Assembly: GCF_041602295.1 (NCBI RefSeq)
Contig: NZ_JBFIGO010000003.1
Span: 6,115-70,114, forward strand
Source: Spongiibacter sp.
GTDB taxonomy: Bacteria; Pseudomonadota; Gammaproteobacteria; Pseudomonadales; Spongiibacteraceae
Length of the DNA: 64,000 nucleotides
Direction of reading: 5' to 3'
This document shows, piece after piece, positions 53,865-64,000 of the stretch. Each line of letters opens with the position of its first letter. Positions within the stretch are counted from its first letter, which is position 1. The notes under the pieces were generated by a model, which saw only the letters and a program-made list of their open reading frames with translations, was not told the origin of the DNA and did no database searches. The position numbers and the translations under genes were made by a program.

Positions 53865-55220
53865 CTACTGAATACCAAAGGCCAACATAGCATCCGCCAC
53901 CTTTTTGAAACCCGCGATATTGGCGCCCTTGGCATAGTCCACATAACCGTCTGGGCGCTTTGCGTACTCGAGGCAGTTACTGTGAATATTCAACATAATA
54001 TCGCGCAACAGGCCCTGCAACTCCTCCTCCCTTAGCATCAAGCGCGTACTGTTCTGACTCATTTCCAAGCCGGAAACCGCCACACCGCCGGCATTGGCCG
54101 CCTTGGCCGGACCAAACAGCACCCGCGCATCGCGAAACACCTTCACACCATCGTTGGTAGTGGGCATATTCGCGCCCTCCACCACCGCCTTCACGCCGTT
54201 TTTAACCAGCAACTCTGCATCCGCTTTGCTCAGCTCATTCTGCGTGGCACAGGGCAAGGCAACATCACAGGGCACTTTCCATGGCCGCTCCCCCTCATGG
54301 AAGGTCGCGCCGGGAAACTCCGCCACATAGTCAGCCAGCTGACCGCTTCGATGCCCCTTGTGCGCCATCACCCAGTGAACTTTTTCCAACGTAAAGCCGT
54401 CCGGGTCATGCACGAAGCCACCGGAATCCGACATGGTTACCACCTTGGCCCCCAACTGCACGGCCTTTTCCGCGGCGTGAGTGGCCACATTTCCGGAGCC
54501 GGACACCGCAACCACCTTGCCTTCCACCACGTCGTTACTGTGCTTGAGCATGTCCTCCAGGAAATAAACAACGCCGTAACCCGTGGACTCCTTACGCACC
54601 AGGCTGCCCCCCCACTCCAGCCCTTTGCCCGTCAACACTCCTACATAGCGGTTGGTAATGCGCTTGTACTGGCCGAACATATAGCCTATTTCCCGCGCAC
54701 CCACGCCAATGTCACCTGCCGGCACATCGGTGTGCTCACCCACGTGGCGGTAGAGCTCGGTCATAAAGGATTGGCAAAAACGCATGACTTCGTTATCAGA
54801 CTTGCCCTTCGGATTGAAGTCGGAGCCCCCTTTTCCGCCCCCCATCGCCAAGCCCGTCAGACTATTCTTGAAGGTTTGCTCAAAGGCGAGAAACTTGAGA
54901 ATGCTCTGATTGACACTGCGATGGAAACGCAAGCCCCCTTTATACGGCCCAATCGCGTTGTTGTTTTGCACCCTATAGCCCCGCTGCACCCGAACGTTAC
55001 CGCAGTCATCCTCCCAGCAGACACGGAAGGAAACCACCCGATCCGGCTCCGCGATTCGGCGTAGAATCTGCGCTGCGTGATAAACCTCCTTGTCTTCGAT
55101 GAAGTCGAAAATATCGACAGCAACCTCATAAACGGCCTGGTGAAACTCGGTTTCGCCGGGATTTCGACGCAGCACCCCGTCCATAAACTGCTCAAGATTA
55201 ACGTGATCGGATACGGCCAT
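53865..55220 (-). CDS. gdhA: NADP-specific glutamate dehydrogenase
   Basis: GPYKGGLRFH, GGGKGGSDF, DVPAGDIGVG, GSGNVA and EGANMP motifs; start MAVSDH with RBS GAGGGG. Confidence 0.95.
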   Translation of the reverse strand: MAVSDHVNLEQFMDGVLRRNPGETEFHQAVYEVAVDIFDFIEDKEVYHAAQILRRIAEPDRVVSFRVCWEDDCGNVRVQRGYRVQNNNAIGPYKGGLRFHRSVNQSILKFLAFEQTFKNSLTGLAMGGGKGGSDFNPKGKSDNEVMRFCQSFMTELYRHVGEHTDVPAGDIGVGAREIGYMFGQYKRITNRYVGVLTGKGLEWGGSLVRKESTGYGVVYFLEDMLKHSNDVVEGKVVAVSGSGNVATHAAEKAVQLGAKVVTMSDSGGFVHDPDGFTLEKVHWVMAHKGHRSGQLADYVAEFPGATFHEGERPWKVPCDVALPCATQNELSKADAELLVKNGVKAVVEGANMPTTNDGVKVFRDARVLFGPAKAANAGGVAVSGLEMSQNSTRLMLREEELQGLLRDIMLNIHSNCLEYAKRPDGYVDYAKGANIAGFKKVADAMLAFGIQ

Positions 55221-55442
55221 GCTCGATTCCCCTCGCGTAAGGCAGTCCTCTATAAGTAATAGACGGCCTGACAGTGTTCGGCCACATTCCTCGCAAACAC
55301 CACACCCACCGCGGGACGGTAAGCTATACTCCTTTTCATCGGGGGTTACCATTGGCGTCGCATTTCGACGCACACCCCAGGACAAACCACCGGAACAAGG
55401 TAGCTAGGGGACACACCATGATGGGTCAGGTGGGGTGATCCA

Positions 55443-58043
55443 GTGACGGATCATTATGAAATTGCCGTTATCGGGGCCGGCCCCGCCGGTCTGAGTGCGG
55501 CCGGTCGAGCTGCAGATCACGACCGAGCAGATCAACTCGCCCAACCCCGCCATATTCTTCTCGAATCCTCGCCACTGCACGCCAACACTATCCAGCGCTA
55601 CCAAAAAGGCAAGCACGTTATGGACGAGCCTGGCTATCTGGATTTGCGCAGCCCGCTAGAATTTGCTGCCGGCAGGCGCGAACACATTCTGCAAACTTGG
55701 GAAGAGGATATCGCCTCCACCGGCATCAACTTGCGCTGCCACACTGAAGTCACCGGTATCAGCGGCCAGCGCGGCGACTTCAAGATCCGCTGCAGTGATG
55801 GCCGCGACATCACTGCAGACAATGTAGTGGTGTCGATCGGCACCCAGGGCAACCCCCGCCGCCTGGGTGTAGACGGTGACACCTCGGCCTTTGTGCAATA
55901 CCAGCTGGACGACCCCGACGAATATAGCGACGAAGATATTGTGGTGATCGGAGCGGGTGATGCGGCTATCGAGAATGCGCTGGCATTAGCGCGCCAGAAC
56001 CGTGTCGTGATCGTGAACCGTCGCGATGAATTCAGCCGCGCCAAGCAGGGCAACCTAGACGCGGTATTAACTGCCATCAACAACCCCAACGTGCCCTTCT
56101 CCTGTCGCTACGGCTCCAGCGTCAAGGCCCTGAGCATTGCTGAAAATGGCGAAGCAGGCAGTATCACCCTGAGCACCCCGCAGGGCGAAGAGACCCTGCC
56201 CTGCCATCGCATCATTGCGCGATTGGGCTCGATCCCGCCACGCAAGTTTGTCGAAGCCTGCGGCATTGAATTTCCCAGCGAAGACATAGAGTCGATACCC
56301 GAGCTGGACGCCCACTATCAGTCCAATGTGCCCGGCCTCTATATCATTGGTGCGCTCGCCGGTTACCCACTCATCAAACAGGGGATGAACCAGGGCTACG
56401 ATGTTATCGAATACATCAAGGGCAATGAGGTAAAACCGGCCGACCACGCCCTGCTGGCACTCAAGTTTGCCCTCCTGCCTTATGGCGCTGATGTCGATGA
56501 TGTGCTGGCCCTGTATCAGCAGCGCATTCCGATGTTTGCCCGCATGAACACACTCGCCTTCCGCGAGCTGATAATGGAAAGCAATATCCACTACGGTGTA
56601 CCCGATCAGCAACAGCTGGAAGAACTGCTGCAACAACGTGGTGAGCTGCGTGAACAGCGTATCGTCGACATTAAGAGCGCACGCCAGCAGGAAGACCAAC
56701 GCCGTGCACAGGCCGGGCGCCCGGCCAAAGTGCGTAAAGAGATTGCGGAACCCGAGATCACGCTGGTCAATGCCGCTGACGACTTTCTGTACCGCGATGG
56801 CGACTACAGCAACAGTTTTTTTACCATAGTAGAGGGCCAGGTGCTGCTACAGGCAGATGGCGGCGCCGATACCCGCCTGGGGCCGGGCCAATTCTTCGGT
56901 GAGATGAGCCTGCTCTCTGGCAGACCCCGCATTGGTAACGCCCAAATCAAAGGTGAAACGATCCTGATCGAAACACCGCGGCGCACCATGGTCAAACTGA
57001 TGGCGGCCAATACGGAAGTCAGCGAGGGGATTGAAGCGGTTTTTCTGCAACGGACCTTGCAGCAGTTTTTCGCGCCCAAAGTCAGTTACAGCGCCCTGCG
57101 CGAAATTGCACGGCAGGTGACCACCAGCCACTTTAATATTGGCGACACCATTTACAGCGAAGGCGAACAGGGTGACCGCCTATACCTCATTCGCAGTGGC
57201 ACGATCGCGCTAACCAAAAGCAGCGCACACGGCGACATCGCGGTAGGCCAGCCCCAGTCGGGAGAAATCTTTGGCCAAATGGCGCTAATGGGTGACGTAC
57301 AGCGCCGCGAAACCGCCAAGGCCTCCGTGCGCTGCGAAGTCATCGAAATTCAACGCCCCCAGTTTCTGGAGCTGCTACGCAAATCCCCCGAGTCTGTCAC
57401 CCGCCTGCAGCAAGATACTACCGCTCAGCTCAAATTGAACGCCCAGCTGGAAGCGGTGCCCGAGAGCGCCTCGGTCATTTCGTTTTTACTTGATCGCGGC
57501 GTCGGCGAAGCAACCAATGTGCTGATTATCAACGAACAGCTCTGTGTAGGCTGCGACAACTGTGAAGTTGCCTGTGCAGAAACCCATGGTGGCGTCTCCC
57601 GGCTGGACCGCAAAGCCGGCGCCCGTTTCGCGCACATCAACCTCCCTATTGCCTGCCGCCACTGCGAAAAACCGCATTGCATGAAAGAGTGCCCGCCCAA
57701 CGCCATACACCGGGATCCCAGTGGCGAAGTGTTTATTGATGACAGCTGCATTGGCTGCGGCAACTGCCAATCCAACTGTCCCTATGGCGTAATTCGCATG
57801 ACCTACCCGACCGAGAAAAAACCCGGCCTGCTGGATTGGTTGTTTTTCGGCCGCGGCCCCGGCCCGGGCGAAGACCGTAATGCCGAACCCAGCGCAACCG
57901 CCAAAGAAACCGGAAAGAAAGCTGTGAAATGCGATGCCTGCGTCAGCCGAGAAGCCGGGCCTGCCTGTGTGCAATCCTGCCCCACAGGCGCCGCAAAACG
58001 TATCAACCCCATACAATTTGTAGAGGTGATTAGCGTAAATTGA
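55443..58043 (+). CDS. Multidomain NAD(P)H/FAD oxidoreductase (TrxB/YpdA/FNR-like) + 2 cNMP-binding domains + 4x[4Fe-4S] DmsB/HydN-like domain
   Basis: GAGPAG and GAGDAA..NRR motifs, and IGALAG. cNMP cassettes FFGEMSLL.GRPR and IFGQMALM..VQRRETA. Sixteen Cys in CVGCDNCEVAC, CRHC..PHC...CP, CIGCGNCQSNCP and CDAC...PACVQSCP. Confidence 0.88.
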   Translation: MTDHYEIAVIGAGPAGLSAAGRAADHDRADQLAQPRHILLESSPLHANTIQRYQKGKHVMDEPGYLDLRSPLEFAAGRREHILQTWEEDIASTGINLRCHTEVTGISGQRGDFKIRCSDGRDITADNVVVSIGTQGNPRRLGVDGDTSAFVQYQLDDPDEYSDEDIVVIGAGDAAIENALALARQNRVVIVNRRDEFSRAKQGNLDAVLTAINNPNVPFSCRYGSSVKALSIAENGEAGSITLSTPQGEETLPCHRIIARLGSIPPRKFVEACGIEFPSEDIESIPELDAHYQSNVPGLYIIGALAGYPLIKQGMNQGYDVIEYIKGNEVKPADHALLALKFALLPYGADVDDVLALYQQRIPMFARMNTLAFRELIMESNIHYGVPDQQQLEELLQQRGELREQRIVDIKSARQQEDQRRAQAGRPAKVRKEIAEPEITLVNAADDFLYRDGDYSNSFFTIVEGQVLLQADGGADTRLGPGQFFGEMSLLSGRPRIGNAQIKGETILIETPRRTMVKLMAANTEVSEGIEAVFLQRTLQQFFAPKVSYSALREIARQVTTSHFNIGDTIYSEGEQGDRLYLIRSGTIALTKSSAHGDIAVGQPQSGEIFGQMALMGDVQRRETAKASVRCEVIEIQRPQFLELLRKSPESVTRLQQDTTAQLKLNAQLEAVPESASVISFLLDRGVGEATNVLIINEQLCVGCDNCEVACAETHGGVSRLDRKAGARFAHINLPIACRHCEKPHCMKECPPNAIHRDPSGEVFIDDSCIGCGNCQSNCPYGVIRMTYPTEKKPGLLDWLFFGRGPGPGEDRNAEPSATAKETGKKAVKCDACVSREAGPACVQSCPTGAAKRINPIQFVEVISVN

Positions 58044-58094
58044 TGCGCCACAAATACTGCAATACAGCGATTAACCGCACATGAGAGCGGCATA

Positions 58095-58985
58095 ATGTCG
58101 GCCCTGTACGCCAACCTGTTGAATTTCGCCGGGCGTCGCTACCTGAAGTGGGCGGCAATGCTGCTGGCGGTCAGCGTATTGCTCTATCTCAGCCAGGACA
58201 TAGCGCTGCCGCGCAATGGCGGCAGCTGGCAGGGCTACGCGCTGGGCAGCATCGGGCTGCTACTGATTGTCTGGCTCAGCTGCCTGGGTATACGCAAGCG
58301 CGATTACAACAATCAGCGCGGCAGCCTGCAGGCCTGGGTCTCCGCCCATATTTATTTGGGCCTGGCACTGCCACTAATCGCCACACTTCACTGCGCCTTC
58401 CAGTTCGGCAACAACGTCCACACCCTTGCCTACCTGCTGATGTGGACGGTAGTGATCAGCGGCGCCTACGGTCTGTACAGCTACCTGCGCTACCCCTTGA
58501 TGATGATCGGCAACCGGGCAAACAAGGCCTTTGATGAGCGCCTGAAAGAACTCGAGGACAGCGACCAGAACGGTCGGGAAGTTGCCGCGCAATGCAACGA
58601 AACAGTAAACGCGATCGTCAACAGTGCCATTGACCGCAGCAGTATTGGCGGCGGCTTTTTGGATCAGCTGCTGGCTCGAGACCGCTCCACCGTGCTGCTG
58701 CCCGGCGACAGTGGCGAGCTGATGTTACGCAACAATGTCGGCCAACAGGCCGCCATCGACTTTCTGGCTGCCAAAATTCCCGCCACCTCCAAATCCGGTG
58801 AGGCAGAGAAATTGCGCGACTTACTCAGCCTGCTGGGTCGCCGCGCCGAGCTACTGAGACGCCTGCGGCAGGAAATCAGCCTGCAACTGCGTTTGAAAGT
58901 GTGGCTCAGCGCTCACGTACCGCTCACTGCAGCGTTATTAGTCGCACTGGTGGCACACGTCATCAGCGTCTTTTTCTACTGGTGA
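58095..58985 (+). CDS. Five-TM membrane protein with two His-x13-His pairs (NOX/ferric-reductase-like di-heme b)
   Basis: H85/H99 (WVSAH...ATLH) and H274/H288 (WLSAH...VAH); positive-inside residues place both helices in the same orientation. Confidence 0.7.
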   Translation: MSALYANLLNFAGRRYLKWAAMLLAVSVLLYLSQDIALPRNGGSWQGYALGSIGLLLIVWLSCLGIRKRDYNNQRGSLQAWVSAHIYLGLALPLIATLHCAFQFGNNVHTLAYLLMWTVVISGAYGLYSYLRYPLMMIGNRANKAFDERLKELEDSDQNGREVAAQCNETVNAIVNSAIDRSSIGGGFLDQLLARDRSTVLLPGDSGELMLRNNVGQQAAIDFLAAKIPATSKSGEAEKLRDLLSLLGRRAELLRRLRQEISLQLRLKVWLSAHVPLTAALLVALVAHVISVFFYW

Positions 58986-58989
58986 TGTC

Positions 58990-60714
58990 ATGCTGATCCT
59001 TGTTCGTAAAGTCCGCATGCAGAACAACCGCATCGTTGATCAAAACGATGAAGAATTCAGCGCCGAGCATCTAACACTGGGCAGCCGCAGCGACCGTGAC
59101 CTGCAGCTGTTCGGTGACGGTGTCGGCACCGAGCACTGCGTACTCCAACCCCAGCAAAACGGCCAGTTGCTGGTGCAGTGTCAGCCACCACACAAGGTGC
59201 TCAGCGCCAGTGAAACGGGCGAGGGCTTGCGTCAGCTCAGTGCGACAGCAGACCAGTGGCTGCGTATCGGCCCGCACCAGTTTGCACGGGTGGAAGCGCC
59301 GCCAGGCTTTGATGCCGCTATTGAGCTGCGTGTTGATATCGACGCAACCGAGTCGCTAAAACAAAAGCTGCAGCAGGAGTTGACCCTGAAGCTGCCGCGA
59401 ATTCGCCGCCACAGTTATCTGTTGGCCCTGCTGACCCTGGCGGCCACGCTATTGCTGCCCTTATGGGGTTTTTATGACGATGGCGCGCAAGCCCTGCTCG
59501 ACAAGAGCGGCGCACCCAGTGACCGGTTTTGGCTCAGCGGCCCCCTTGCGGCACCGCACCATCTGCCGGGTTTGGCGAACGATTGCAATAGCTGCCACCT
59601 CAAGCCTTTTCAGCAGGTGCCGGACCAAGCCTGTGCGCAATGCCACAACACGACACCGGCGCATTTCGGCGATGCCCATCCCGCTGCGACCCGCCTGGAC
59701 CAAGATTGCGCCGCCTGCCACAAAGAACACAACGAGCCAGAAACACTGATAGTTGAAAACACCGCTCTGTGTGTCGACTGCCATCGCTCAGAACAAGCAC
59801 GCAGCCTTGATAGTCATTTCGCCGTTAGCGGCCACCCAGTAGCAAAAGCCCCCACACAGCTGCGCGCGGCCAGTGCGTTTACCGAAGCCGCGCATCCGGA
59901 GTTTCTACTTGCCCTGCTAAAGCGCGAACCAAACGGCTGGCAGATACAGCGCGAGCGCGCAGCGACTGCCCGTGAGTCGTCTAATCTAAAATTTCCCCAC
60001 GACGTACACACCAGCAGCAACAAGGTCTGGCGCAAGGAGAAAAACGGGCAACAACGTGCACTGCACTGTGGTGACTGTCACCAACTTGCCGACGACGGCG
60101 AACATTTTCAGCCCATCACCATGGAAACCCATTGCGCCGACTGCCACAGCCTCAGTTTTGACGACGCGGCTCCCTATCGATCGCTCCCCCATGCTCAAGC
60201 TGATGTGGTGGAAACCTACCTCGCCGAATTCTACGTTAAACAGCTTGCCGAGCAGCTGCGTTTGGCCGCAGCCCCACCACCGCGCTGGGTCCCGGCGCGC
60301 GATCTCGACACCCTGTGCCCCTCGCGCGATCCGCTGCAATGCGGCCTCGCCTGGGCCGACCGGGAGATCAGCCAGCTGTTTCAAACCAGCGGCTGCGTCG
60401 ATTGTCACGAAGTGGATCAGCACGACGGGCGCTGGCAAGTACGCGAGGTCAGGCTGACGCAGAACTGGATGCCCGAGGCGCGCTTTGATCACCGCCCGCA
60501 TCTCAGCGCCACCGTCGATGGCGAGGGCTGTCTGCGGTGTCACCAGGCCGACCGTTCCTCGCACAGCCGGGATGTATTGATGCCCAGTTTGGCAGACTGC
60601 ACCGCCTGCCACGGAGAGAAGCAATCCCAGGCCGTGCTGTTGCAGTGTATTGATTGCCATAGTTTTCATCGCACCGGTATGCCGGCAATGCTAAAGGCGG
60701 AGACACTGCCATGA
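58990..60714 (+). CDS. Membrane-anchored decaheme cytochrome c with N-terminal FHA-like domain
   Basis: Ten CxxCH motifs: CNSCH, CAQCH, CAACH, CVDCH, CGDCH, CADCH, CVDCH, CLRCH, CTACH, CIDCH. One TM after RIRRH; FPHDVH and FDHRPH distal-His motifs. Confidence 0.88.
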   Translation: MLILVRKVRMQNNRIVDQNDEEFSAEHLTLGSRSDRDLQLFGDGVGTEHCVLQPQQNGQLLVQCQPPHKVLSASETGEGLRQLSATADQWLRIGPHQFARVEAPPGFDAAIELRVDIDATESLKQKLQQELTLKLPRIRRHSYLLALLTLAATLLLPLWGFYDDGAQALLDKSGAPSDRFWLSGPLAAPHHLPGLANDCNSCHLKPFQQVPDQACAQCHNTTPAHFGDAHPAATRLDQDCAACHKEHNEPETLIVENTALCVDCHRSEQARSLDSHFAVSGHPVAKAPTQLRAASAFTEAAHPEFLLALLKREPNGWQIQRERAATARESSNLKFPHDVHTSSNKVWRKEKNGQQRALHCGDCHQLADDGEHFQPITMETHCADCHSLSFDDAAPYRSLPHAQADVVETYLAEFYVKQLAEQLRLAAAPPPRWVPARDLDTLCPSRDPLQCGLAWADREISQLFQTSGCVDCHEVDQHDGRWQVREVRLTQNWMPEARFDHRPHLSATVDGEGCLRCHQADRSSHSRDVLMPSLADCTACHGEKQSQAVLLQCIDCHSFHRTGMPAMLKAETLP

Positions 60715-62699
60715 GAGTATTGCCGGCCTTACTGCTGAGCCTGACACTGTCCGGCTGTTTACCCGGCGGCGATCGCGACAACCAGGACGGCGCACGCGGC
60801 TCCAATGCCGGCAGCCGCTGCGACGGCAGCTGTGCCAATGCCAGCACCTTTCTCAGCCCTGCTGATGTCGAACAAGTGATCCGACAGGCCGCCGCCGAGG
60901 CAAAGGCCTTGAACGTTGGCGCCACCATTGCCGTGGTCGACCGTGTCGGCAATGTGCTGGCGGCCTACCGGATGGACGAGGTGCTGACCGGCAGCGTCGG
61001 CGAGGTCACCATCGCTTCCAACCCTGGCGGCACGCCCATTGCGGCCGGCCTGGAAAGCCTGAAACTGCCCATCAGCGCTGGCGCCGATGCCTTAGCCGCC
61101 ATTGCCAAGGCCATTACCGGCGCCTACCTGTCCAGCGAAGGCAACGGCTTCAGCACCCGTGTGGCCAGCCAGATTGTGCAGGAGCATTTTAACCCCGGCG
61201 AGCGCAACCAGCCCGCGGGCCCGCTGTTTGGCGTGCAATTCAGTCAACTGCCCTGCTCTGACTTCTCGCTGGACGCCAGCAACCCCGCCACCCTGGTCGG
61301 CCCCAAACGCTCACCGCTGGGGCTATCAGCCGATCCGGGCGGCTTTCCACTGTATAAGAACGGCACACCGGTGGGCGGCATTGGTGTTATCGCCGATGAT
61401 TTCATCTACTCGCTGGACAAGAACATCAGCGACAGCGACCGGGATTTCGATGAGCTGATTGCGCTGGCCGGGACCTTTGGCTATGCCGTGCCCGCCGACC
61501 GACAGGCCGACCACATCACGGTCGACGCCAAGACCCTGCGTTACAGCGATGTCGACTTCGACGACCTGAGCGCCAATCTCACCTCGCCACCAGCACTGGT
61601 GCTGGGTGTCGATGGTTTGCTGGTCTCGGTGCCCGATTACTACGACAGCGCCAATGGCTATCTCGGCGGGCAGGCCTTTGGTGAAGCCGCCTCCGGGGTC
61701 CGCCCGGATACCACACACTTTCCCGGTCGCGATGCCTTTGTGTTCGTCGACCAAGCCAACATGGAACGCTTCCCGCCCAGTGCGGGCAGTGCATTGACGG
61801 CCGCCGAGGTACGCACGCTGATTGACCAGGCGTTGTCGGTCGCCAACCGGGCGCGCGCGCAAATCCGTCGCCCGCTGGGCTCCCCTGCCAGAGTGACGAT
61901 CAGCGTGGTGGACATCGACGGCAGCGTCCTGGGTATCGCCCGCAGCCGCGATGCGCCGGTCTTCGGTGCTGATGTCTCACTGCAAAAAGCCCGTACCGCA
62001 ACGCTGTTCTCCTCCAGTGACGCGGCCGACTTCATCAGCAACCTACCGGACACCCAGTACCTGACACCGACCCTGACCCAGTCAACCACCGTACAGCTGG
62101 TCGACTATGTTCAGAACGTGATTAATTTAACCGGTGACGCCAACGCCCTGCGCGATGGCATTGCCTTTGCCGACCGCTCCGGTGGCAACCTCTCCCGGCC
62201 GTTCTACCCCGACGGTATCGACAGCGCCCAGACGGGCCCACTCAGCAAAGCCCAGGGTGAATGGAGCCCCTTCTCCACCGGACTGCAGCTGGATATGAGC
62301 ATGAATGCCATCGTGCGCCACCTGCTGCATGAGTTTGATCCCACTAACGTCAGCGACGTCGGCAAGAACTGCGTCGGCGTGCCCTTTCCCAGCGATGCCA
62401 GCATCGCGAGTGCGAGGGCAGCCAATGGCATTCAGATTTTTCCTGGCAGTGTACCGGTGTACCGCGGCCTGCAGCTGGTGGGCGGCATTGGTGTATCCGG
62501 TGATGGCGTCGACCAAGACGATATGATTGCGTTTCTCGGCGTACATCAGGCCGGCCAGATACTCGGCACCCTGAACAATGCCCCGGCGAGTATCCGCGCC
62601 GATACCCTCAGCCCTGGCGGCGTCAGACTGCGCTATATCAGCTGCCCTCAATCACCCTTTAACGACAGTGATGAACAAGATGCCTGCGCGGGGAAGTAA
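60711..62699 (+). CDS. Lipoprotein with two GlcG/HbpS-like (heme-binding) domains
   Basis: LSGC lipobox; repeated IAVVDRVG/ISVVDIDG, AKA.T/QKARTA and GGFPL...VGGIGV/GSVPV...VGGIGVSG motifs; ATGA overlap with the cytochrome gene. Confidence 0.82.
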   Translation: MRVLPALLLSLTLSGCLPGGDRDNQDGARGSNAGSRCDGSCANASTFLSPADVEQVIRQAAAEAKALNVGATIAVVDRVGNVLAAYRMDEVLTGSVGEVTIASNPGGTPIAAGLESLKLPISAGADALAAIAKAITGAYLSSEGNGFSTRVASQIVQEHFNPGERNQPAGPLFGVQFSQLPCSDFSLDASNPATLVGPKRSPLGLSADPGGFPLYKNGTPVGGIGVIADDFIYSLDKNISDSDRDFDELIALAGTFGYAVPADRQADHITVDAKTLRYSDVDFDDLSANLTSPPALVLGVDGLLVSVPDYYDSANGYLGGQAFGEAASGVRPDTTHFPGRDAFVFVDQANMERFPPSAGSALTAAEVRTLIDQALSVANRARAQIRRPLGSPARVTISVVDIDGSVLGIARSRDAPVFGADVSLQKARTATLFSSSDAADFISNLPDTQYLTPTLTQSTTVQLVDYVQNVINLTGDANALRDGIAFADRSGGNLSRPFYPDGIDSAQTGPLSKAQGEWSPFSTGLQLDMSMNAIVRHLLHEFDPTNVSDVGKNCVGVPFPSDASIASARAANGIQIFPGSVPVYRGLQLVGGIGVSGDGVDQDDMIAFLGVHQAGQILGTLNNAPASIRADTLSPGGVRLRYISCPQSPFNDSDEQDACAGK

Positions 62700-64000
62700 C
62701 TGCCATAACGCGGTGCTGGCCGGCGTGCTGGCGGCCTTGCTGCCACACGCGACCTACGGGCAGGCGGCACGTATTTGCGAAAGGCCCGCTGCCGGCGACC
62801 CCAGTATCCCTGCCCGCAACGACGGCTGCGCGCGCAGAACGGCGCCAACCGGCAAGCGCATTGCCACCCCCAGCCTAAACGACTACAGCCCCGCCCAAGC
62901 CATGCCGGACCGCTGGCGAATTGTCGATGCACTGGGCTATGAAAGTCGCTGGTACGACCCCTACAACCGCAACACACTGAAAGGCGATGCCCCCCTTCAC
63001 GGCGACTGGTTCTTTGCCACCACTCTCATTTCAGACACCGTGTTTGAAGATCGCAAAGTCCCTACACCGGTTGGCTTGCAAAGTACCCGCAGCGCGGGCG
63101 ATCTGGATTTGCTCGGCGGCAGCAGTCAAACCCAGCTGGTTCAATCACTGGCCGTCGAATTGGTGTATTACAAGGGCGACACCGTATTTCGCCCACCGGA
63201 CTATGAATTTCGGCTGACACCAGTGTTCAACTACAACGACACCCAACTAGACGAAATCCTCGGCATCAATGTCGATCCCGCTAAGAAAAACAGCCGTTAC
63301 GACAACTTTGTCGGCTTCCAAGCGGCCTTTGTCGACGTCCACCTGCGCAATGTTTCGCCGCGCTACGATTTCGACAGCATCCGCGTCGGCATCCAGCCCT
63401 TTACCGCTGATTTTCGCGGTTTCCTGTTTCAGGACAGTCCCTTTGGGATCCGCCTGTTTGGCACCCGCGACAACAACATTTTTCAGTACAACCTGGGCTG
63501 GTTCCGGCGTCTGGAAAAAGACACCAACAGCGGCTTGAACGACGCCGGAGAAGCGCTGCGCGACGACGATATTTTTGTCGCCAACCTCTACTGGCAGGAT
63601 ATGCTGGCCAAGGGCCACATGAGTCAGTTCACGCTACTCTACAACCGCAACCGGGAAAGCGATTTCTTTTTTGACAATAACGGGTTTATTCAGCGACCCG
63701 CCTCCTTTGGCCGCGAGAGCCCCCGCAAGTACGATGTTGTCTATCTCGGCTTCAATACCGACGGGCATGTTGAGCGACTAAATATCACCAGCGCTTTTTA
63801 TGTTGCCCTCGGCCAGCAGGACGGCTCCCCCTTCACTGGCGATGACAGTGACATCCGCGCACTTTTCGCCGCCGCAGAGCTATCGTTTGATCGCGACTGG
63901 ATTCGCTGGCGCGCATCGCTGCTCTACGCTTCCGGTGACGATGATCCCTTTGACGATGTTGAAACCGGCTTCGACGCCATACTGGAATCCCCCCTGTTTG
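62671..64000 (+). CDS. Probable outer-membrane beta-barrel protein, 3'-truncated (absent from the ORF track)
   Basis: Frame 1 is open from ATG 62671 (or 62680) to the window end. Signal-like VLAGVLAALLPHATYG/Q, PDRWRIVD...WYDPYNRNTLKGD, then amphipathic strands (YNLGWFRRLEKDTNSG, YLGFNTDG, WIRWRASLLYASGD). Confidence 0.75.
   Translation, partial: MNKMPARGSNCHNAVLAGVLAALLPHATYGQAARICERPAAGDPSIPARNDGCARRTAPTGKRIATPSLNDYSPAQAMPDRWRIVDALGYESRWYDPYNRNTLKGDAPLHGDWFFATTLISDTVFEDRKVPTPVGLQSTRSAGDLDLLGGSSQTQLVQSLAVELVYYKGDTVFRPPDYEFRLTPVFNYNDTQLDEILGINVDPAKKNSRYDNFVGFQAAFVDVHLRNVSPRYDFDSIRVGIQPFTADFRGFLFQDSPFGIRLFGTRDNNIFQYNLGWFRRLEKDTNSGLNDAGEALRDDDIFVANLYWQDMLAKGHMSQFTLLYNRNRESDFFFDNNGFIQRPASFGRESPRKYDVVYLGFNTDGHVERLNITSAFYVALGQQDGSPFTGDDSDIRALFAAAELSFDRDWIRWRASLLYASGDDDPFDDVETGFDAILESPLF

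Follow-up and report, generated by a model that had tools for sequence, protein, structure and literature searches.

A flavoprotein, cyclic nucleotide-binding and iron-sulphur fusion as the putative electron-input subunit of a bacterial trans-envelope haem conduit

We have analysed a 64,000-nucleotide stretch of the Spongiibacter sp. contig NZ_JBFIGO010000003.1, called the window throughout, in which gene A (55443..58043, + strand) encodes an 866-amino acid protein that joins a flavoprotein, a tandem of two cyclic nucleotide monophosphate (cNMP)-binding domains and a domain with motifs for four [4Fe-4S] clusters in a single chain. Gene A belongs to a conserved seven-gene cluster (genes A to G), and we propose, with a probability of roughly 0.6, that its product is the cytoplasmic electron-input subunit of a trans-envelope haem conduit and that the cNMP tandem acts upon it as an allosteric gate. 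Residue numbers refer to the 866-residue protein unless another gene is named. A sequence-only reading of the same interval had described the fusion as a ligand-gated redox input module; every motif that it listed was recovered by our motif script, and its interpretation survives in part, in that the flavoprotein assignment and the input role are upheld, while its statements on the partners of the iron-sulphur (Fe-S) domain and on a Glu to Gln change in the second sensor domain needed revision.

Results

Linkage of gene A to a cytochrome cluster

The linkage of gene A to the putative haem-conduit cluster is obligatory. Among 80 species loci that carry the gene A family, from which all synteny counts given here are taken, the arrangement A-B-C-D-E is syntenic in 55-63, most absences coinciding with contig ends; counted by gene, C is syntenic in 63 loci, D in 59 and E in 55, and gene F comes next after E in 56. 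The order in Burkholderiales is B-C-D-E-F-G-A, so that gene A is kept in the cluster at its opposite end. The 51-nucleotide gap between A and B in the window holds no terminator-like site, the gap between B and C is 4 nucleotides, and C and D overlap.

In three genomes, all of a single genus from another class of the phylum, A and B share an uninterrupted frame of 1120-1146 codons. One of these (locus L098, 376-3747) translates as a 1123-amino acid open reading frame (ORF). Its residues 3-793 align with A at 41% identity, and the stretch 810-1123 corresponds to B and keeps both WX3HX13H motifs; the open frames of the sister genomes comprise 1120 and 1146 codons. We regard this fusion as the strongest evidence that the Fe-S wire of A hands electrons to B. 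The cytochrome context as a whole, of which the sequence-only reading had made no use, lends strong backing to its view of gene A as an input module.

Reading frame and architecture of gene A

Gene A is the sole long frame in the interval 55443-58043 (+). The GTG at 55443 is the earliest in-frame start possible downstream of the stop at 55419, there being none between, and a Shine-Dalgarno-like sequence, AGGTGGGG, can be read at 55428..55435 (+), 8-15 nucleotides 5' of the GTG. A scan of 54900-59100 for sigma-70-like promoters returned no site and is uninformative. The domain mapping that had been called for was carried out with Pfam and NCBIfam, and it returned the flavin domain, both cNMP domains and the four-cluster Fe-S domain; their order along the chain is a flavoprotein of the thioredoxin reductase (TrxR)/YpdA fold, a PKA-like cNMP tandem and a HycB/HydN-type domain. 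Conservation was judged from an alignment of 46 homologues with 47-73% identity to the gene A protein, and the AlphaFold2 (AF2) model built on these has a mean predicted local distance difference test score (pLDDT) of 83.9 and a predicted template modelling score (pTM) of 0.75. Judged by its sequence, gene A is a conserved architecture, and a fortuitous ORF could not be expected to resemble it, the agreement being far beyond chance. The flavin domain is connected to the first sensor domain by a helical linker (56604..56762, +; residues ~388-440) with an AF2-predicted helix at residues 389-423. This is a lineage-specific insertion, about 55-60 amino acids long in gene A and its close relatives and 2 amino acids long in distant family members.

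The flavin domain

Residues 5-318 (55455..56396, +) form a domain for flavin adenine dinucleotide (FAD) and NAD(P)H of the TrxR/YpdA fold (PF13738/PF07992), which scores 98.5 bits with Pyr_redox_3 and 93.1 bits with Pyr_redox_2 and carries GAGPAG at residue 11, GAGDAA at 170 and NRR at 192. A sequence search of the PDB finds TrxR, YpdA/Bdr and TrxR-type ferredoxin-NADP+ reductases (FNRs) all at about E 1e-10 to 1e-7; when the AF2 flavin domain is searched with Foldseek the top match is Bdr/YpdA 7a7b (E 6e-23, target TM-score 0.73), followed by TrxR-type FNRs and then TrxRs. Pfam, Foldseek and the motif script thus bear out the TrxB-like FAD fold with GAGDAA and NRR that the sequence-only reading had described. 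The NADPH motif reads NRRDEFSRAK, which is the TrxR-type 2'-phosphate motif N192-R193-x-x-E196-F197-x-R199-x-K201. Six of its residues (N192, R193, E196, F197, R199 and K201) are invariant in the 46 homologues, and R194 is found in 26 of them. Because this motif is kept, it is fair to conclude that gene A probably prefers NADPH, as had been suggested.

The residues on which thiol chemistry depends are replaced. The C-A-x-C of TrxR aligns to Q154-L-D-D157, within a Y153-Q-L-D-D-P158 segment that is conserved in the family, and the catalytic Cys of YpdA, in the GGGPCG of 7a7b, aligns to Ala15 in the GAGPAG of gene A; position 15 is Ala in 25 homologues, Gly in 16, Ser in 5 and Cys in none. The only cysteines that the motif script found before residue 701 are at 99, 117, 221, 254, 273 and 631, and none of them forms a CxxC. 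Two of these, C221 and C254 in the NADPH domain, are conserved in 40/46 and 38/46 homologues respectively, 33 residues apart. Since both the TrxR CxxC and the YpdA Cys have been replaced, thiol reduction by gene A is unlikely, and FNR-like donation of single electrons is a reasonable reading of these residues; the preference for electron transfer over thiol reduction that had been expressed earlier therefore stands. The domain combines features of a TrxR-type FNR, namely the TrxR two-domain fold, FAD and NADPH motifs, and no dithiol.

The cNMP sensor tandem

As had been noticed before, two cNMP-binding domains are located between the flavin and Fe-S domains, which Pfam places at 56775..57011 and 57129..57383 (both +, PF00027; the latter covers residues 563-647). 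Together these two stretches score 114.5 bits against a gathering score of 27.5, and both copies appear also in the genome scan. Their closest solved relatives are the tandem cyclic nucleotide-binding (CNB) domains of PKA/PKG regulatory subunits (3of1, E 1e-20). Phosphate-binding cassettes are found at 56895-56930 (+; F485-G-E-M-S-L-L-S-G-R-P-R496) and 57270-57305 (+; F610-G-Q-M-A-L-M-G-D-V-Q-R621), both with the PKA-like spacing Glu/Gln-x8-Arg; the first has the Gly-Glu-x8-Arg signature in full, and the second is partly canonical, with Gln at 612 in gene A. In cassette 1, G486, E487 and R496 are invariant (46/46). In cassette 2 the same is true of G611 and R621, and position 612 is Glu in 27 homologues and Gln in 17. 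The residues that follow the cassette Arg are variable. The motif script and the alignment agree with the earlier description of FGE at 485 and FGQ at 610, each with its Arg, and the Glu to Gln change is real, but its occurrence in 17 of 46 homologues means that it is no peculiarity of gene A. With the Gly and Arg of both cassettes invariant, selection for a phosphate site offers the simplest reason, and the invariant Arg at both sites argues for a maintained phosphate-binding pocket; the tandem most likely binds cAMP or cGMP.

A potential source of such a ligand exists in the genome of gene A, which encodes a single class III cyclase, and class III cyclase genes lie no more than about 5 kb upstream of A in five of the 80 loci (L028, L033, L034, L038 and L048). 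On a Thermodesulfobacteriota contig, a gene for a 1107-amino acid cyclase (L083:5945-9268) adjoins a homologue that has the two cNMP domains and the Fe-S domain and lacks the flavin domain, which is followed by a 696-amino acid multihaem cytochrome. The recurrence of cyclase neighbours, together with the genomic cyclase, provides circumstantial support for control by cyclic nucleotides.

The Fe-S domain

The carboxy-terminal domain (57522..58004, +) is a ferredoxin domain of the HycB/HydN/DmsB type, matched by Fer4_11/Fer4_7 at about residues 694-854 (PF13247 47.6 bits, cut-off 26.2). It has exactly 16 Cys in four [4Fe-4S] motifs (701-711, 738-750, 769-779 and 830-846), as had been counted from the letters, and all 16 are invariant across the homologues. 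Among solved structures it is closest to subunits that serve as electron wires, namely HycB3 of HDCR (7qv7_A, 3.8e-19), ArrB (6cz7_B) and HycB (7z0s_B). Among NCBIfam models the best match is to the N-terminal four-cluster module of E. coli AegA, and PadI and YgfT match also; the scores stay below the equivalog cut-offs for HydN (57.2 against 260), DmsB (55 against 214.1), ArrB (61.3 against 450) and AegA (69.8 against 1003). The contention that DmsB-type subunits do not partner flavoreductases was overstated, because in AegA the four-cluster module is fused to a flavoprotein, of GltD type. What is unusual in gene A is that the flavin partner is TrxR-type and that a sensor tandem is placed between the flavin and Fe-S domains.

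Gene B

Gene B (58095..58985, +) encodes a 296-residue inner-membrane protein of five helices, modelled by AF2 with a pLDDT of 93.5. Its motifs, in its own numbering, are W81xxxH85x13H99, S122-G-x-x-G126 and W270xxxH274x13H288, and H85, H99, H109, H274 and H288 are invariant in 41 homologues. Five helices, two WX3HX13H motifs and SGxxG are the published motifs of the inner-membrane proteins of PCC3/PCC4 clusters (He et al. 2017, PMC5566968), and gene B has them all, helices 3 and 5 each bearing WX3HX13H and helix 4 bearing SGxxG. Most of the homologues (37/41) weakly match PF01292 (cytochrome b561/Ni-hydrogenase cytochrome b), and three match PF01794 (Ferric_reduct) at E 0.1. The motifs and their conservation support the assignment of gene B as a putative di-haem b protein. 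Membership of the NOX/FRD group was considered for gene B and set aside, there being no fold match in the PDB and only weak, clan-level Pfam matches; we retain it as a functional likeness.

Genes C to G and their neighbours

Gene C (58990..60714, +; 574 amino acids) combines a cytoplasmic N-terminus resembling a forkhead-associated (FHA) domain, at a weak E of 0.02, with one transmembrane helix at about residues 142-165 and a periplasmic decahaem cytochrome c, in which there are ten CxxCH motifs and matches to Cytochrome_C7 and Paired_CXXCH. Gene D (60711..62699, +) encodes a 662-amino acid lipoprotein with the lipobox LSGC and repeated HbpS/GlcG-like domains (PF03928 in three stretches, E 2.8e-24). 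Gene E (62671..64000, +) encodes a putative outer-membrane, porin-like protein without a match in Pfam or NCBIfam; it extends past the window to a stop at about 64443. Its longest frame, from 62578, overlaps the end of gene D by about 120 nucleotides, and the ATG at 62671 is the likelier start, the N-terminus there being signal peptide-like. Beyond the window, gene F (L082:2566-6321) encodes a 1251-amino acid secreted protein with ten CxxCH motifs, an MtrC-like segment and LVIVD repeats, and its 49-68% identity across families makes it more conserved than A-E in most loci; gene G encodes a tetrahaem, c554-like cytochrome.

Directly after F and G, on the same contig, contig 3 (L082:7640-10910), come genes for a phosphatase of the PP2C type, for a protein in which two FHA domains are strongly matched (E 5.6e-38) and for a Ser/Thr protein kinase, and kinase homologues occur near the cluster in 12 of the 80 loci. 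These neighbours, together with the FHA-like N-terminus of the decahaem cytochrome C, point to phospho-regulation. On the other flank, a GdhA-type glutamate dehydrogenase (53865-55385, -) adjoins gene A divergently; its annotated TTG start probably overextends the ORF, as the Pfam domain begins at residue 114. GdhA homologues lie within 10 kb upstream of A in 9/80 loci; several of them immediately precede A, and some share its strand (for example L002 8626-9978). A link to the supply of NADPH is possible.

Distribution of the gene A family

More than 6700 relatives of gene A were retrieved by a word-indexed database search. The top 120 all approach full length (823-882 amino acids) and are, besides the window's own sequence, 53-73% identical, and their only name at NCBI is "cyclic nucleotide-binding domain-containing protein". 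An exhaustive HMMER search yielded 578 clusters at 50% identity with E <= 1e-30, and at least 575 GTDB species representatives encode the family. In an even sample, 14/301 gammaproteobacterial genomes carry it, the window genome counted, corresponding to 13/271 genera (~5%); it was not found in the sampled genomes of the same order, and it is present also in other classes of the phylum. In one sampled gammaproteobacterial genome (G158) the fusion gene is present twice at full length, each copy on its own contig. Cultured carriers include Zhongshania, Spongiibacter nanhainus, Alcanivorax sp. 1008, Pseudomarimonas arenosa and Zavarzinia, and the majority of carriers live as aerobic heterotrophs in the sea or in soil and are not lithotrophs.

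Two apparently flavin-less forms were considered as evidence of a split family and discarded: one (P0291) is an artefact from a long-read contig full of frameshifts, and the other (P0370) has an overlapping Pyr_redox gene upstream. A form of 474-475 amino acids from Thermodesulfobacteriota is the only flavin-less relative that looks genuine.

Discussion

A model for regulated electron input

In proposing how gene A operates, we begin from the observed domains, motifs, gene linkage and A-B fusion, and from these we infer a cofactor content, an outward direction of flow, the binding of cyclic nucleotides and a mechanism of gating. NAD(P)H, probably NADPH, would reduce FAD in the TrxR-fold domain; because there is no redox dithiol, the flavin would then give up its electrons one at a time to the C-terminal domain with its four [4Fe-4S] clusters. 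This Fe-S wire would dock at the cytoplasmic face of B, where a stack of two b haems spanning the membrane would be held by the two WX3HX13H pairs, and from B electrons would move to the membrane-anchored decahaem C and then, via outer-membrane protein E, to the periplasmic and surface cytochromes G and F. The cNMP tandem would determine whether the flavin and the wire, or the wire and B, lie within electron-transfer distance. A shift of FAD relative to the Fe-S chain upon ligand binding is plausible by analogy with other tandems of this kind. Electron flow from NAD(P)H (-320 mV) to haems is downhill and assisted by the membrane potential, and the reverse is doubly uphill, for which reason the outward direction is favoured. 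Such export would be costly, dissipating the membrane potential; the tandem may therefore be understood as an allosteric gate upon it, and because outward flow dissipates energy, layered control of the conduit would be explained.

The model may be extended, tentatively, to a purpose. The cluster could carry out NADPH-driven, regulated electron export as a functional analogue of the eukaryotic NADPH oxidases, with a two-signal switch composed of a cyclic nucleotide acting on A and Ser/Thr phosphorylation read by the FHA-like domain of C, and with a non-respiratory role in reductive metal acquisition, the production of extracellular superoxide or redox signalling. We hold this to be possible and clearly more doubtful than the input role itself.

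Several observations weigh against the model of a gated, outward-facing input subunit. For gene B nothing structurally related is detected in the PDB (the best Foldseek match has E 0.36), and the window's own copy falls below threshold for the Pfam signals seen in its homologues. The second sensor domain has Gln in place of the ribose-binding Glu, CNB-like folds may bind other ligands or none, and the sole class III cyclase of the genome is unlinked to gene A, on contig 17. To our knowledge most carriers of the family have no known extracellular electron transfer, and literature searches found no biochemically or genetically characterised member. Finally, the opposite direction, in which electrons taken up from Fe(II) reach the quinone pool via the inner-membrane protein, has been proposed for related clusters (He et al. 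2017, PMC5566968).

It may be, alternatively, that the wiring is as we propose and the cNMP-like domains are not cyclic nucleotide sensors at all, serving instead as a spacer, as a dimerisation module or as receptors for another ligand, so that electron flow is constitutive or otherwise controlled, for instance by the neighbouring Ser/Thr kinase, PP2C and FHA genes. CNB folds with other ligands are well known, among them c-di-GMP (Clp), metabolites (NtcA, PrfA) and haem (CooA); the variable position 612 and the variability beyond the cassette Arg would suit such a view, as would the regulatory genes just downstream of the cluster and the kinase homologues near 12 loci. However, it leaves the invariance of Gly and Arg in both cassettes, their PKA-like spacing and the recurrence of cyclases beside the gene A family without a ready explanation, and we consider it unlikely. 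Our confidence is lower still that electrons run inward, being taken up from Fe(II), Mn(II) or minerals, or that they end at the membrane, with B reacting with quinone and A acting as an NAD(P)H:quinone side entrance, a cytoplasmic acceptor or a redox sensor. Here the uptake proposal for PCC3/PCC4 clusters concerns the same type of inner-membrane protein, B is weakly homologous, through PF01292, to the quinone-reactive cytochromes b of hydrogenase and formate dehydrogenase, and a ten-haem "Forkhead-associated protein", probably of the gene C family, is found in 27/87 Gallionellaceae iron oxidisers (PMC10734462). Yet a flavoprotein of the NAD(P)H type that carries a low-potential wire of four clusters, and that is fused to B in one genus, fits a donor; no quinone-site motif was identified; and most carriers, as noted above, are aerobic heterotrophs. 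Inward flow is rated lower than outward because it is thermodynamically implausible that donors at the level of Fe(II) should reduce NAD(P)+ against the membrane potential.

The remaining view, that A is a disulfide or low-molecular-weight-thiol reductase of TrxR/YpdA type whose regulatory and Fe-S domains are incidental, takes its appeal from the N-terminal domain, the best NCBIfam and Foldseek matches of which are YpdA/Bdr and TrxR. The scores themselves exclude the domain from both families (96.8 bits against a cut-off of 339.9 for YpdA/Bdr TIGR04018, and 60.3 against 343.45 for TrxB TIGR01292), the gene context is entirely one of cytochromes, and the defining residues, YQLDDP for CxxC and Ala, Gly or Ser for the YpdA Cys in 46/46, are not those of a thiol reductase, so that we attach almost no weight to this view. 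The reading of gene A as a cNMP-gated electron input is the one that we carry forward.

Were the gating confirmed, a second messenger would act directly on an electron-transfer chain and not on transcription or a kinase, and if the likeness to NADPH oxidases also proved true, no earlier case would be known in which a second messenger gates the passage of electrons within one molecule between a flavin and an Fe-S wire. Cytoplasmic NAD(P)H would gain entry to a trans-envelope haem conduit bypassing the quinone pool, and bioelectronic engineering would gain a compact, ligand-switchable module. A second messenger-gated flavin-to-Fe-S junction is an attractive hypothesis, and either finding, such direct action of a messenger or the NAD(P)H entry point, would alter how extracellular electron transfer is viewed in aerobic bacteria of sea and soil; the A-B fusion would be a convenient construct for the biochemistry. 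The value of the window itself is modest, consisting of one further family member and of contextual evidence from the fusion of A to B, the permuted order of the genes and the neighbouring cyclases.

Comparison with known systems

The gene A family has been described before from genomes, as part of a core trio, and is uncharacterised; the window adds one member. This trio appears in PCC4 subgroup II (He et al. 2017, Front Microbiol 8:1584, PMC5566968) and as PtdE-PtdF-PtdG of the ptdABCDEFG operon, the function of which is unknown (Elbon et al. preprint, bioRxiv 10.1101/2023.11.21.568154), in both cases from genomes only, and extracellular electron transfer has been proposed for clusters of the PCC4/ptd type (PMC5566968; bioRxiv 10.1101/2023.11.21.568154). 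The defining arrangement is found here too: a cNMP/[4Fe-4S] (pfam13247) protein directly 5' of a five-helix protein of ~300 amino acids, and then a decahaem cytochrome, with a porin and a tetrahaem cytochrome within the cluster. The published set differs in having a pentahaem PtdA and a separate FAD/NAD(P) oxidoreductase, PtdC, neither of which is present in the window cluster, where the flavoprotein is instead the N-terminal domain of the gene A chain; the Ptd proteins were compared by description only. Conversely, the window cluster carries the HbpS-like lipoprotein D and the 1251-amino acid decahaem/LVIVD protein F.

The component domains have analogues of their own. The flavin domain shares with TrxR-type FNRs (Bacillus subtilis YumC 3lzw, Bacillus cereus FNR1/2 6gar/6gas, Chlorobaculum 3ab1) and with YpdA/Bdr 7a7b the two-Rossmann TrxR fold, the FAD and NADPH motifs and the absence of CxxC, and with the FNRs a likely donation of single electrons to an Fe-S partner. 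Identity to these proteins is, however, only ~20%, the Fe-S partner of gene A lies in cis behind two sensor domains, and the YpdA Cys is absent. The CNB-A/CNB-B pair of PKA and PKG is the best sequence relative of the tandem, with the same cassette spacing and the Gly-Glu...Arg signature, but the output of gene A would presumably be the geometry of a redox chain and not a kinase, and site 2 has Gln for Glu. In AegA and YgfT, as in gene A, a four-cluster module is paired with a pyridine-nucleotide flavoprotein, although the domain order and the flavoprotein subfamily differ and all equivalog scores are far below their cut-offs. The wiring of FdnH-FdnI and HycB, in which a four-cluster ferredoxin feeds a di-haem cytochrome b, is similar, B being weakly PF01292-like; the topology is reversed, as the Fe-S domain of gene A is cytoplasmic, and there is no molybdoenzyme or hydrogenase catalytic subunit.

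The likeness to the NADPH oxidases and ferric reductases (NOX/FRE) of eukaryotes and bacteria is one of logic only. The flavin domain of gene A is TrxR-type and not FNR-type, a four-cluster wire is interposed, and B is not a recognisable FRD, and yet in both arrangements cytoplasmic NADPH would reduce a flavin that feeds a pair of b haems, for which two helices supply His-x13-His pairs, and electron export would be controlled by a second messenger or by phosphorylation, for which the A-B fusion would be a single-chain analogue.

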